Shown here: in pieces, positions 1 to 17,650 of the stretch | Layout of the letters: every line of letters starts with the position of its first letter | Numbering within the stretch: the stretch's first letter is position 1 | Source of the DNA: an uncultured archaeon | GTDB taxonomy: Archaea; Asgardarchaeota; Lokiarchaeia; Sigyniarchaeales; SOKP01 | NCBI GenBank assembly: GCA_964486045.1 | Contig: CAZALK010000001.1 | Location: 616,242 to 680,241, forward strand | DNA length: 64,000 bases | Reading direction: 5' to 3' | Notes under the pieces: generated by a model | What the model saw: the letters and a program-made list of their open reading frames with translations, nothing else | The model's database searches: none | What the model was told of the DNA's origin: nothing | Made by a program: the position numbers and the translations under genes

Positions 1-1239
1 AAAATCCATTTGAAATTCTATTTCATATCTTTTATTGTAAGTTTTATGATTAGGATTTATTATTCGATATTTTTGCGCATATTCCCTAAAATAATTTAAA
101 TTTAGTAAATGATTTTGAGATAAACGAAGTAAACAATAACTCTTAATTATAAAATTAGAACTTTTCATTTTTCTGATAAACTCAGTAAAATCTTCTAAAT
201 AAGGTCTAGGGAGGATAACATAACCACTTAGTTCACAATTAAAACTATTATATGAAATTTTCGGAGAAATGAAGAAGGGAGACTCTTCAATTACCTTAAA
301 TATATCAGTTCTTCTTAATTTAGGATTAAAACTTAAGAATATGGCAATAACACATACATCAAGCGTATTCCAATTTAATTGATAAGAAGGAGAAATATAA
401 CTATATCTTCTTATCCAGTTAATATTGCTAAATAATTTTCTTAAACTTAATTTAGTATCCATCCCCCCAATTTCTTTAAGGTTTTGAAAAAATTTTCTAT
501 AACTTAGGAAATCTTTATACTTCTTTACTTTATAGAAAATATATATTATACATCTAATTGATTCTACGATCTCATCTTTATTCATAGATCTAGATAAATA
601 ATTAGTATACTCGTTGAAGAACACATCATGTATATCTTCCTCATTAAATGTTTTCATTCTATCACTAATTAAAGAAATGTTTCTTCTTAGATATTTAAAG
701 AAAAATTGTGTAGGATTATTGGGTATTTGTTGATGATAGAGTTTGAAAAATCTTTCTAAACGGTCAAATGCAAATAGACGATTTACTCCTTTGGTTAAAA
801 GGTCTGTCTGTTCAAGATTTTCTCTGATAATTGACTTCCATTCATTTAAATGTTTAGATTTATTGAGATCACTTAAAATTATTTGATTGATGATAATTTG
901 TACAAATTCGTAGCTTTTTAATTCTTTTGGAAGAAATAAATTATAAATTTCTCTCAAAATAATAAACGGGAGAAATTTTATATAACTTTCAAAGAATTCT
1001 ATTACTACAACATTACTATCGATATATCGATTAACTCCAATACTAAAAATATCCTTACCCTTTAAGGAATTTGTATCAAGATTTTTATTAAGAATAAATT
1101 TGATTTTTTCATGAAATGGATTTATATCCAAAAATAATTGTATCTCTTTGAAAAAATCCTGAACAATCACTTCTAAATCTTTAATAAGTTCTTCTGCTGA
1201 TAGATTTTCTAAAAATTTTAAATCAGGAAGTTTTAACAT
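1..1239 (-). CDS. Large multi-domain putative regulator, N-terminal 413 aa (runs off window); paralog of the 44777-48414 protein
   Basis: Not in ORF track because it has no stop in the window. ATG at 1239 reads MLKLPDLKFLENLSAEELIK...KFLPFIILREIYNLF...FDRLERFF...ISPSYQLNWNTLDVCVIAIFLSFNP..., colinear with 47071..48414 (KFLPFILLREIYNLF, FDRLESFF, LAPSYHINWNNINVCVI). Confidence 0.85.
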   Translation of the reverse strand, partial: MLKLPDLKFLENLSAEELIKDLEVIVQDFFKEIQLFLDINPFHEKIKFILNKNLDTNSLKGKDIFSIGVNRYIDSNVVVIEFFESYIKFLPFIILREIYNLFLPKELKSYEFVQIIINQIILSDLNKSKHLNEWKSIIRENLEQTDLLTKGVNRLFAFDRLERFFKLYHQQIPNNPTQFFFKYLRRNISLISDRMKTFNEEDIHDVFFNEYTNYLSRSMNKDEIVESIRCIIYIFYKVKKYKDFLSYRKFFQNLKEIGGMDTKLSLRKLFSNINWIRRYSYISPSYQLNWNTLDVCVIAIFLSFNPKLRRTDIFKVIEESPFFISPKISYNSFNCELSGYVILPRPYLEDFTEFIRKMKSSNFIIKSYCLLRLSQNHLLNLNYFREYAQKYRIINPNHKTYNKRYEIEFQMDF

Positions 1240-1391
1240 TTGTATTCTTTGTTACAAGTCGTTTTAATTAAAATTAAAGAATTACATATTTATTTTTTTA
1301 CAATTTAATAATTTTTCTTGCTTTTTATAGTGGTTTAAATAAATTCTCACTAAAAATATGTTGAAAATTTACCTATTTAATGTGTATTTAC

Positions 1392-1505
1392 ATGAAATTA
1401 CAAAATAAAATAAAAGTGTCACTAGCTTTCTTGACTGCGATTTCCATTGGCCTTAAAATGTTAGTTGCTGGCTTAGCTGTTAATGCTGGTGAGGGCGGGC
1501 CTTAA
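1392..1505 (+). CDS. Small peptide 1, 37 aa: MKLQNKIKVSLAFLTAISIGLKMLVAGLAVNAGEGGP
   Basis: Hand-translated ATG..TAA; same length as and alignable to the two downstream peptides; followed by a pyrimidine/T tract. Confidence 0.85.
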   Translation: MKLQNKIKVSLAFLTAISIGLKMLVAGLAVNAGEGGP

Positions 1506-1534
1506 TTATTTCTAAAAATAATAAAGCTAGCGAA

Positions 1535-1555
1535 TATTTTTCTCTTTTTTTCTCT
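1535..1555 (+). terminator. Pyrimidine/oligo-T tract after peptide 1 (similar tract at ~1827-1843 after peptide 2)
   Basis: AAGCTA..ATATTT..CTCTTT..TTTT follows both stop codons; oligo-T tracts are the typical archaeal terminator. Confidence 0.5.
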
Positions 1556-1675
1556 AAATATACAAGACATTTTTTTAATATTAATAAAATCCTCATAGGA
1601 CTACCTTATTTTTAAATTTTTCGGAGTTTATATAGGTTTCTTGCAATACAATTACACCTAATCAAGGTGAATTTA

Positions 1676-1789
1676 TTGAAATTACGAACAAAACTAAGTT
1701 TAATGATGGCTTTTTTAACAGCAATTTCACTCTTTCTTAAAATGTCCATTTTTGGGTTAGCAGTTAATGGAAATGGTGGCGGACCCTAG
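1676..1789 (+). CDS. Small peptide 2, 37 aa: MKLRTKLSLMMAFLTAISLFLKMSIFGLAVNGNGGGP
   Basis: TTG start preceded by SD-like AGGTGA; TAG stop; shares AFLTAIS and GLAVN with peptide 1. Confidence 0.85.
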   Translation: MKLRTKLSLMMAFLTAISLFLKMSIFGLAVNGNGGGP

Positions 1790-1966
1790 ATTACTTTGAG
1801 ATTATTAATTTAAAAAAGCTACATTATATTTCTCTTTATTTTTATATCCTTTTCATTAATTTTCTTGGAATTTATATATTTAAGATTGGAAAAAATCTTA
1901 AGAAAATATAGTCTTCTTGTTGTATTTTCATGACAATTCGTAATAAACTTTTCTTGGTGTATTTAG

Positions 1967-2080
1967 ATGAAAATTCGTACCAAAATTTCAATATTATTAG
2001 CTTTATTAACTGCTATTTCAGCGTGGCTTCAAAAGTCAATCATCGGATTTGGATTCTCTGGTGGCGAAGGAACCCCATAA
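1967..2080 (+). CDS. Small peptide 3, 37 aa: MKIRTKISILLALLTAISAWLQKSIIGFGFSGGEGTP
   Basis: ATG..TAA preceded by GGTG; shares MKxxxK, LTAIS and the Gly-rich tail ending in Pro. Confidence 0.8.
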   Translation: MKIRTKISILLALLTAISAWLQKSIIGFGFSGGEGTP

Positions 2081-2282
2081 ATCAATTTTTTTCAAGATTC
2101 TCCTTTATTAAAAATCTATATATAGATAAATTCCTTAGATTTTTAATATTTTAGATTCTGTTAAATTGCTTCAGTAAATATTTTATTAGACATACCTCTG
2201 TTGAATCATATTCTCCACGAATTTAAAGTGGTCTAAGTTTCAATGGGTGGGAAGCGAAATGGAATTTCTGAAAATTCTTTAG

Positions 2283-2409
2283 ACATTTGTGTCAAATCAC
2301 TCCCACGATTTACCTTTAGAACCCCTCTACTCCTATTATATTTTTTGAGGAAAACATTTATAAGGGAAACTCCCTCCTCTTTTTAATTATAAAAAAAAAG
2401 TGACATTAT
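2283..2409 (+). promoter_or_regulatory. Conserved upstream element of Zn-ribbon gene (copy 1)
   Basis: Blocks ACATTTGTGTCAAATC, AGAACCCCTCTACTC, TTTTTGAGGA and a BRE/TATA-like AAAACATTTATAA recur with similar spacing at 50749-50881. Confidence 0.65.
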
Positions 2410-2601
2410 ATGAAAAACAACTTGATCAAATATAAATGTCCAAGATGTAATGGAGAAAGCACTGTCGACTATGGTGAGACGTTTCAATGTGAAAAATGTC
2501 TATTAGAGTTTTACAAGGAAGATATGGAAACTTACGAAAAGAAAGATATACTAGCAATCTCAGAATTGAGTGCCATTATGAAAGTTTTTGCGAAAAACTA
2601 A
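2410..2601 (+). CDS. Small Zn-ribbon protein (CPRC...CEKC), paralog of 50882..51130
   Basis: Two CxxC motifs; shares KCPRC, LEFxKED and ILxxxE...KVF with 50882..51130. Confidence 0.8.
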   Translation: MKNNLIKYKCPRCNGESTVDYGETFQCEKCLLEFYKEDMETYEKKDILAISELSAIMKVFAKN

Positions 2602-2709: not shown

Positions 2710-2844
2710 TGCTCCTGCCGGGATTCGAACCCGGTTAATGATACAAAACGATAGGATCTGTATTGTCACCAGGGTGAAAGCCTAGCATGCCAAGCCCTTT
2801 CTTTTACATAGGGTGAAAGATTGGCCGGACTACACTACAGGAGC
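2710..2844 (-). tRNA. tRNA-Glu(TTC) with two 30-nt non-canonical introns (~21/22 and ~48/49)
   Basis: Acceptor GCTCCTG/CAGGAGC; anticodon arm CTAGG-CTTTCAC-CCTGG; T arm CCGGG-TTCGAAT-CCCGG. Both inserts fold as bulge-helix-bulge (GGCC/GGCT and GGTG/CATT central helices). Confidence 0.9.
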
Positions 2845-2986
2845 ATGGTACTTTTATTTTATCAAGCTTTTTTTATAAATCGTTTTTAGAACTCTTAAAC
2901 TATTATTAATAGTAGAGTCTGCAATCATTAAAATTTTTCTTTTCTTTAGAAATAAAATGTTGGAAATGTATTAATAAAAGAAAATA

Positions 2987-3242: not shown

Positions 3243-4241
3243 ATGAGTGTAAGAGATTCTTTAATAAAACATTTAACGTCTATATTACGTGCATCAGAAG
3301 GTACAGTTTTGGTGCTTTTATGTGATCAAAATGGTCTTTCTATCGCAAAGATTGGTAGAAAAAGCGAAATTGATTTAGATCCCAATCAAATTACAAGTCT
3401 CGCAGCAGCAGCTTTTACAGCGAGTGAAGAAAATTGGGAAGATCTGAATATTAAAGAGCAAGTTATTTCATTTTCATATTTTGAGAAGGTGTGTTTAATA
3501 ACAATTAGAATTAATGAAACACTCTTGACTATTGTTCATGATTACCATAAAGAATGGCCATTAGATGCGGATAATCTAGCATCATCAATGTACTATCTGA
3601 AACAAAAATTAGGAGAGTTTTTTGGAACTGGGGATGAAACTGAGGCAGAAATCGAGCAATTTTGTGATAAAGTTCGAAGTGCAATTTATCTTTTCGGAAT
3701 GGGTTCGGAAGTTCCCCTTATTTCTTATAGTCATGAAGATATTGAACTTACTAATTTACTACCGGCAATAAGCACTATTTTAGATTCTCTGCAAAACCCC
3801 ATTTTTATTAGATACGGGTTAGTAGGTGAATCAGGGCTAACATTGGATGCTAGGGAGATAAGTGGTCAAAATTTACCGATATCCATTGAGGCATTTTCTG
3901 CAAATGCGCATGTTGCTTTTCAAAAAATGAAAGAAGAATCTGAGGGGAGCTCAATAGGGAATTTATTATGTTATGTCGCTATTTCTGGAAGTGATGCCGA
4001 AAATTTTTATGGACTAATCTCATGCCCTTCTGGAAAATTAAAATACTCAAATATTGAAAACACATCAAATACTGAAGATATTTCTTTTATTGGATTATTT
4101 TCCCTTACATATGGAGGTATTCCTATTATCTGTGAATCAAGGAATATTATTTATTCAATTATGCAACTATTAGGTAGTGAACAGACTACTGAAAACTTTA
4201 TAAAATCTGTTAATGTTCTTACTAGTTTTAAATATGAGTGA
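3243..4241 (+). CDS. Tandem roadblock/LC7-domain protein
   Basis: Two repeats of the roadblock pattern (LCDQNGLSIA...ITSLAAAAF; LVGESGLTLD...EAFSANA). Confidence 0.7.
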   Translation: MSVRDSLIKHLTSILRASEGTVLVLLCDQNGLSIAKIGRKSEIDLDPNQITSLAAAAFTASEENWEDLNIKEQVISFSYFEKVCLITIRINETLLTIVHDYHKEWPLDADNLASSMYYLKQKLGEFFGTGDETEAEIEQFCDKVRSAIYLFGMGSEVPLISYSHEDIELTNLLPAISTILDSLQNPIFIRYGLVGESGLTLDAREISGQNLPISIEAFSANAHVAFQKMKEESEGSSIGNLLCYVAISGSDAENFYGLISCPSGKLKYSNIENTSNTEDISFIGLFSLTYGGIPIICESRNIIYSIMQLLGSEQTTENFIKSVNVLTSFKYE

Positions 4242-9988: not shown

Positions 9989-10090
9989 TGGACCTGACGG
10001 GAATTGAACCCGTGACCTCTTGAGTGCAAGTCAAGCTTAAAATTAGCATGCTAAGTGCAGAGTAATGATCTTCCACTGATCTACAGGCCC
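9989..10090 (-). tRNA. tRNA-Ala(TGC) with 30-nt intron at ~25/26, downstream of 16S
   Basis: GGGCCTG/CAGGTCC acceptor; CTTGA-CTTGCAC-TCAAG anticodon arm; insert ATTACTCTGCACTTAGCATGCTAATTTTAA with a BHB-like fold. Confidence 0.9.
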
Positions 10091-10107: not shown

Positions 10108-11733
<1,626 letters not shown>

Positions 11734-17537: not shown

Positions 17538-17650
17538 GCTTCTGTAGTGTAGACCGGTCAATTTAAGTCGTAGTTATAGATTGATACGATTAAGATCAAG
17601 CATCTGAGGCTCTCACCTTCGGGACCCGGGTTCAAATCCCGGCAGAAGCA
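17538..17650 (+). tRNA. tRNA-Glu(CTC) with 38-nt D-loop intron (~21/22)
   Basis: GCTTCTG/CAGAAGC acceptor; TGAGG-CTCTCAC-CTTCG; BHB GGTC-AAT / GATC-AAG. Confidence 0.92.

Follow-up and report, generated by a model that had tools for sequence, protein, structure and literature searches.

What does a gene for a protein of 1,220 residues do beside a row of genes for peptides of 37? The question is raised by the left end of a 64,000-nucleotide stretch of DNA (which we refer to as the window; GenBank assembly GCA_964486045.1, contig CAZALK010000001.1, G000:C1:616242-680241 in genome coordinates) from an uncultured archaeon with a genome of 5.18 Mb and 30% G+C; public records class its close protein relatives as Promethearchaeota/Lokiarchaeota. 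A first-pass annotation, made from the letters alone, had described here a large minus-strand open-reading frame, three 37-residue peptides, a Zn-ribbon protein and the 3' end of a tRNA, all of which we found at this locus (locus A), and had proposed that they form a peptide-signalling cassette built around a giant regulator. Our analysis shows a conserved and undescribed gene pair, which could be an archaeal peptide-signalling system. The reading that we favour, tentatively and with a little less than even confidence, is a lineage-specific two-part module in which a giant fused Lrp/AsnC-type regulator would control an adjacent gene for an exported peptide or a transporter.

The large gene of locus A leaves the window at its left edge, with its first 413 codons at positions 1-1239 (minus strand) and the full gene, of 1,220 aa, at G000:C1:613818-617480. 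Divergent from it, and 152 nt from its start, lies peptide gene A1 (1392-1505, plus strand; 37 codons and a stop, encoding the C-terminal tail VNAGEGGP), followed on the same strand by A2 (1676-1789; 37 codons, a TTG start with GGTGA before it, tail VNGNGGGP) and A3 (1967-2080; 37 codons, tail FSGGEGTP). In alignment the three are paralogous, sharing 46-59% identity and 13 invariant columns, and their nucleotide differences are spread over codon positions 1, 2 and 3 at about 10:10:20, whilst in the A-[FL]-L-T-A-I-S block the variation is almost confined to third positions. Because the differences concentrate on third codon positions, we take A1-A3 to be coding, and a GGTG-type Shine-Dalgarno-like element stands immediately before the peptide-gene starts. 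A tandem duplication of 37 nt (81% identical, window 1905-1978) spans the ribosome-binding region and first codons of A3 and yields a second ATG in another frame.

Alignments and database members together give the peptides a common plan: they open with a basic MK..K, continue with 13-21 hydrophobic residues and a small-x-Ala motif (mostly G/A-L-A), and finish in a tail of 8-11 residues, which often begins with W, F or Y, is rich in glycine and ends in G-G-x-P directly before the stop. In loci paired with a large gene they are 37-40 residues long. A basic n-region, a hydrophobic h-region and a c-region with small residues at -3 and -1, as expected of a Sec-type signal peptide, are all present as read from the alignments, with G/A at -3 and Ala at -1 ahead of the tail recurring across subfamilies. 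Judged from their sequences, then, the peptides look like a Sec signal peptide followed by a short secreted tail. Class III (pilin-type) signals, PGF-CTERM and GlyGly-CTERM sorting signals and double-glycine leaders were rejected by eye, since the motif positions do not fit. The subfamilies comprise an 'LALLTAIS' type, an 'IGIASFLPM' type, a Cys-containing 'PGC' type and a four-gene array at locus L117. Within subfamilies the hydrophobic segment is well conserved, and between tandem paralogues the 3-4 residues before G-G-x-P vary. The idea that the tail is better conserved than the body was ruled out among close pairs (0.77 for the tail vs. 0.81 for the body), and the terminal G-G-x-P alone is universal.

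The family extends to about 50 intact copies across genera, constant in length and invariant at the end. A profile search of 1.84 billion protein representatives returned 12 clusters, all of 28-43 aa and none inside a larger protein, and as only 7 members have been called in a set of 5.8 billion proteins, the family is essentially unannotated. TTG is the start codon in most orthologues, and most members of the family escape gene callers, the main reasons being their short length and their TTG or near-cognate start codons. Four otherwise intact copies carry CTG, CTA or ACG at the aligned start (L038:2562-2723, L041:9044-9172, L042:5798-5920 and L006:10916-11056), one of them with AGGTG ahead, and represent either near-cognate initiation or decaying copies. 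We also considered whether the peptide genes are relics of the first helix of a major facilitator superfamily (MFS) transporter and discarded the idea, as the peptide profile matches no MFS N-terminus.

Are the peptide genes truly linked to the large gene? A profile built from the three sequences gave 23 significant matches in 161 genomes of the class, of which 17 adjoin a homologue of the large gene, 2 lie on contigs too short to judge and 4 are elsewhere. For a wider survey, 73 large-gene matches were collected in 61 genomes of the same family at least 90% complete, and the 58 loci fetched from these, with 12 earlier ones, made up a set of 70 loci, in which peptides were sought both by the profile and by a simple rule that asks for a hydrophobic stretch, two or more Gly among the last 12 residues and Pro-stop. 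The first-pass annotation had staked its proposal beforehand on peptide genes standing next to the homologues of the large protein. They do so in 23 of the 70 loci, which belong to several genera and peptide subfamilies, with one to four genes each at distances of 70-1,200 nt (16 upstream and divergent, 5 upstream and co-directional, 2 just downstream). The other 47 loci, including a clade of 29, have no adjacent peptide open-reading frame and mostly carry an MFS transporter gene, which goes part of the way to refuting the proposal. The pairing of peptide genes with the large gene is nonetheless conserved to a degree well beyond chance. Applied to the whole 5.18-Mb genome, the rule picked out 28 frames, five of which genuinely belong to the family, namely A1-A3 and two orphans on contigs C5 and C15, which are of a second subfamily and have no large gene nearby. 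The profile, and not the rule, found a further copy 430 nt upstream of another large-gene paralogue (paralogue C), with ACG at the start position. Among the surveyed loci, one large-gene copy (L041, G087:C84) stops after 583 aa with a Zn-ribbon gene directly behind it, and two intact peptide genes remain upstream.

The most common neighbour of the large gene, found when the flanking open-reading frames of the 70 loci were clustered, is an MFS transporter gene. It occurs in 28 loci, usually 270-550 nt upstream, its products being 25-32% identical to the MFS protein of a second locus in the window (locus B), and 27 of these 28 loci have no peptide gene. As MFS and peptide loci barely overlap, we read the transporter and the exported mini-peptides as two alternative partners in the same position. 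Zn-ribbon homologues are present in 7 of the 70 loci, 6 of them with peptide genes, and are confined to the locus-A-type clade; no other biosynthetic or export gene emerged from the clustering as conserved near the large gene. In a FastTree phylogeny of 62 near-full-length large proteins, some deep joins of which are long-branch, 29 copies form one clade (support 97) without any peptide gene, and the peptide-linked copies are clustered elsewhere, in further clades and along deeper branches of the tree (8 changes vs. 15.9 in shuffles, 0 of 500 as low, a clustering that kinship inflates). The peptide subfamilies track the large-protein clades.

Locus B illustrates the alternative pairing. The earlier claim that the cassette is present twice stands for the large gene, the Zn-ribbon gene and the tRNA gene, which have the same order and orientation in both loci, and it fails for the peptides. 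Paralogue B of the large gene (44777-48414, minus strand) is followed divergently by the MFS transporter gene (49327-50565, plus strand; PF07690, E 6e-16), which had been correctly recognised, then by the gene for Zn-ribbon paralogue B (50882-51130, plus strand; 82 aa, 39% identity to Zn-ribbon A, E 2e-8) and, 100 nt further on, by a tRNA gene (51230-51290, minus strand); the counterpart Zn-ribbon gene of locus A lies at 2410-2601 (plus strand; 63 aa). Between 48415 and 49326 neither a protein hidden Markov model nor nhmmer with a DNA profile of the peptide genes detects a peptide gene, and the peptide-like mini-genes with a '..GP-stop' tail reported here come down to a single 9-codon frame at 49000-49029 with no profile match. 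A frameshifted relic joining 48938-49000 to this frame is conceivable by eye, and was set aside without similarity support. Paralogue B shares 47% identity with large protein A over 413 aa and is split into open-reading frames of 447 and 760 aa by one T missing from a T-run at about 47123-47127; with the T restored the frame reads the family consensus, and both halves are otherwise intact and conserved. The break could be a recent pseudogene, an assembly error or a programmed frameshift.

What kind of protein, then, is the large one? Neither Pfam nor NCBIfam has a family that matches it, and searching the PDB sequences with a profile revealed no relative among solved structures. More than 226 homologues of about 1,210 aa were found, all from Loki-type archaea. 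A query with the C-terminal third detects the protein in 22 of the 25 genomes searched from its own family and in none of 126 genomes from 26 other families of the phylum, and a profile found nothing in five sister-family genomes. Most genomes carry one copy and this genome carries four, together with an 82-aa fragment (L006:11272-11517, on G000:C1; 34% identity to the large-protein N-terminus) just upstream of the intact paralogue C, a duplication remnant.

AlphaFold models from 40-sequence alignments (predicted local distance difference test, pLDDT, 81 over aa 1-445 and 76.5 over aa 436-1220) suggest a protein composed of an M1-like domain and about four Lrp/AsnC-like units, each a winged helix with a RAM domain. 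The best match for residues ~15-218 is the catalytic domain of M1 aminopeptidases (six entries, with Z 7.5-8.0 and 173-181 residues aligned), for residues 219-385 full-length Lrp/AsnC regulators (Foldseek probability 0.99; VIA Z 8.0-8.3 over 138-148 residues), for residues 670-759 ACT/RAM/PII-like beta-alpha-beta-beta-alpha-beta domains (Z 8.9) and for residues 835-1211 NirDL, itself a fusion of two Lrp-like units (272 residues aligned, Z 11.0, E 3e-6); a helical region, seen in the secondary structure of the model, spans aa ~445-650. The 413 codons inside the window cover the M1-like domain and the first of the Lrp/AsnC-like units. The winged helix followed by a beta-alpha-beta-beta-alpha-beta ligand domain that defines the Lrp/AsnC fold is thus seen in the models, and matches in the Atlas are to archaeal arrays with HTH_AsnC-type/HTH_24 domains (TM by target 0.58-0.67, and 0.5-0.67 to PF13404/PF13412 clusters). 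A Pfam B-block_TFIIIC match (E 0.12) and an Atlas feature match (0.81) are leads only and were not used. No tetratricopeptide repeat (TPR) receptor fold is among the top structural matches of either model, in agreement with the earlier view that any likeness to the Rgg/SHP pheromone systems is analogy without homology.

Homology of the N-terminal domain to M1 peptidases is probable only, as Z-scores of 7.5-8.0 are near the background level of the tool. The HExxH-X18-E zinc site of M1 gluzincin peptidases is absent: the helix at the HExxH position reads R96-E97-I-Y-N100, and N118-Q119 stands nineteen residues on, at the position of the third-ligand Glu. In 40 homologues R96 and E97 are invariant and Q119 is near-invariant, so that all three zinc ligands are replaced family-wide, and because of this replacement the domain is best read as an inactivated peptidase. 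G68-V69-N70-R71 presumably occupies the place of the GxMEN motif, on a spacing taken from LTA4 hydrolase numbering. Modelling aa 1-445 in complex with the 37-aa precursor gave a score of 0.00, which carries no verdict and was counted neither for nor against any reading.

How might the two parts work together? In the reading that we favour, the ~1,200-aa protein would be a cytoplasmic, ligand-responsive, DNA-binding regulator, and would control whichever gene is transcribed out of the upstream region that the two have in common. This neighbour, the second part, is the MFS transporter gene in one large clade, and one to four tandem mini-genes in other clades, locus A included; the mini-gene products would be exported and their tails of 8-11 residues set free outside the cell by signal peptidase. 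Divergent regulator-target pairs are the usual layout of Lrp-type regulators, for example Lrp with brnFE in Corynebacterium, and the MFS partner in 28 loci fits this layout and so supports a regulator-target relationship.

Several observations weigh against this reading. The large protein has no helix-turn-helix (HTH)/AsnC sequence match to Pfam or NCBIfam models, even at E 5, so that the first-pass description of a giant regulator finds backing in the modelled Lrp/AsnC-type fold and none at the level of sequence families. No shared palindromic operator was found (none in at least 8 of 69 upstream regions), a result that decides nothing on DNA binding. The Lrp-like fold is also used by an enzyme that is not a regulator, the siroheme decarboxylase NirDL. 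Peptide genes occur without a nearby large gene, two in this genome and others elsewhere, and three orphan peptide genes lie in a genome of another family in which the large gene was not found. Finally, the hydrophobic segment of the peptides appears to be kept more strictly than a generic signal peptide requires, and also fits an uncleaved membrane helix.

This last point leads to an alternative in which the peptides would be uncleaved single-pass membrane proteins, N-terminus in and Gly-rich tail out, that modulate a transporter or envelope complex, whilst the large protein merely regulates them. The unbroken hydrophobic stretch of about 21 residues in subfamily 2 suits such a role, as does a core that, within subfamilies, is as conserved as the tail and keeps a Ser, frequently joined by a Pro, in the middle of the helix; bacterial small membrane proteins are known to tune transporters, and an MFS gene fills the same position elsewhere. 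However, subfamily 1 has Lys or Arg within the hydrophobic stretch, the near-invariant G/A-x-A right before the tail is typical of signal-peptidase sites, and peptide and MFS genes are rarely found together (1 of 28 MFS loci), and we regard the proposal as unlikely. Of similarly low probability, in our view, is a closed autoinducer loop, in which the exported 8-11-mer would build up outside, be re-imported by an Opp-type or MFS transporter, bind the large protein and switch transcription of the peptide gene, making an archaeal counterpart of Rgg/SHP, PrgX/PrgQ or PlcR/PapR. Gene adjacency and the precursor build of the peptides argue for it; the divergent, co-directional and downstream positions of the tiny genes resemble those of the RRNPP systems; an M1-like substrate-binding fold without metal ligands would suit binding without cleavage; and there are genes for four or more binding proteins of the Opp/Dpp type (PF00496) in the genome. 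Yet the PF00496 genes are all elsewhere and no importer is linked to the locus, 47 of the 70 large-gene loci, with the 29-member clade, lack a peptide gene, the same architecture is paired with an MFS transporter instead, and some peptide genes are orphans. The residues before G-G-x-P that differ between tandem paralogues, as they do in pherotypes, likewise speak for the loop, and a more specific proposal is one of Asgard cell-cell signalling, in which the G-G-x-Pro 8-11-mers would be sensed through the inactivated aminopeptidase domain as a pocket and the tandem paralogues would be pherotypes; this too we hold to be doubtful.

Less probable again is that the large protein is an enzyme or chaperone, acting on the peptides in a maturation resembling that of ribosomally synthesised and post-translationally modified peptides (RiPPs), or on hydrophobic membrane-protein clients. 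Fused Lrp-like units can have an enzyme function, as NirDL demonstrates, the protein includes a domain probably derived from a peptidase and tandem precursor arrays are common in RiPP clusters, but the loss of the zinc ligands extends across the family, the precursors have signal peptides of the Sec type and not leader peptides, the clustering showed no other biosynthetic or export gene conserved nearby, and the MFS-linked clade has no peptide substrate alongside. That the small open-reading frames are non-coding chance frames in an AT-rich spacer we consider very improbable: they are short, many orthologues lack an ATG (TTG, with a few CTG, CTA or ACG) and few are annotated, but this is set against the number of intact copies with their constant length and end, the third-position bias of the substitutions and the GGTG elements ahead of the starts.

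Further features of the window lie around the two loci. The tRNA gene beside locus A (2710-2844, minus strand) is apparently broken by two introns; its 5' end and its 3' T-arm and acceptor are readable directly in the sequence, and it was called by neither ARAGORN nor Rfam. Between this and the next tRNA gene there is a weak C/D-box sRNA-like match (2869-2933, minus strand; snoR25, 22 bits, E 0.46). The gene at 3243-4241 (plus strand) has a 332-aa product that weakly matches roadblock/MAPKK1_Int (E 1e-4), and an orphan peptide gene in another genome (L042, G093:C84:5798-5920) adjoins an orthologue of this roadblock-like gene, a place syntenic with locus A from which the large gene is absent. 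A 16S rRNA gene is found at 10166-11657 (minus strand), and tRNA matches at 9989-10090 (minus strand) and 17538-17650 (plus strand) exceed standard tRNA length and probably contain introns. Beyond locus B, the 243-aa product of a gene at 51667-52398 (plus strand) weakly matches PD-(D/E)XK nucleases (E 5e-3).

Both bacteria and eukaryotes are known to have peptide pheromone systems, and we know of none in archaea; a limited search of the full-text literature returned neither a report of such a system in archaea nor any account of this large-protein family. Were signalling true, it would be the first for archaea, with a receptor unrelated to any bacterial one, and the locus, from the lineage of archaea most closely related to eukaryotes, offers a precise and synthesisable candidate: precursor genes, a partner protein and mature peptides predicted to be octa- to undecapeptides. 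A conservative reading still leaves novelty in the predicted ~1,200-aa architecture of an inactivated M1-like domain with four Lrp/AsnC-like units, found in only one Loki-type family among the genomes searched, in a family of largely unannotated, predicted exported mini-proteins, and in the evidence of putative regulators swapping transporter and peptide partners.

Each part of the module recalls a known system and departs from it. Residues ~15-218 align with the catalytic domain of M1 gluzincins such as LTA4 hydrolase, tricorn factor F3 and PepN, whereas the three metal ligands of these enzymes are replaced in the large protein (R96, N100, Q119). NirDL/AhbAB gives the best structural match to aa ~835-1211, but at 9-12% identity, with no haem-pathway context and a very different size, and fold similarity alone does not carry the enzyme function of NirDL over to the large protein. 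With Lrp/AsnC regulators it shares the unit of winged helix and RAM domain and the divergent placement beside a transporter or target gene; these regulators, however, are oligomerising subunits of ~150 aa, whereas here about four units appear in one chain of 1,220 aa with a long helical region and an additional N-terminal domain. From the RRNPP systems of Firmicutes (Rgg/SHP, PrgX/PrgQ-iCF10, PlcR/PapR, Rap/Phr) the module differs in its archaeal host, in the predicted inactivated M1-like domain and four Lrp/AsnC-like units in place of TPR and Xre-type HTH domains, in having no linked Opp genes, and in that most large-gene loci are without a peptide gene, the MFS gene being the most common neighbour. 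Yet the general plan is alike: a tiny gene lies divergent from or co-directional with the gene for a large, cytoplasmic regulator-like protein, its product, with tandem or paralogous variants, being little beyond a putative signal peptide and a short C-terminal tail.

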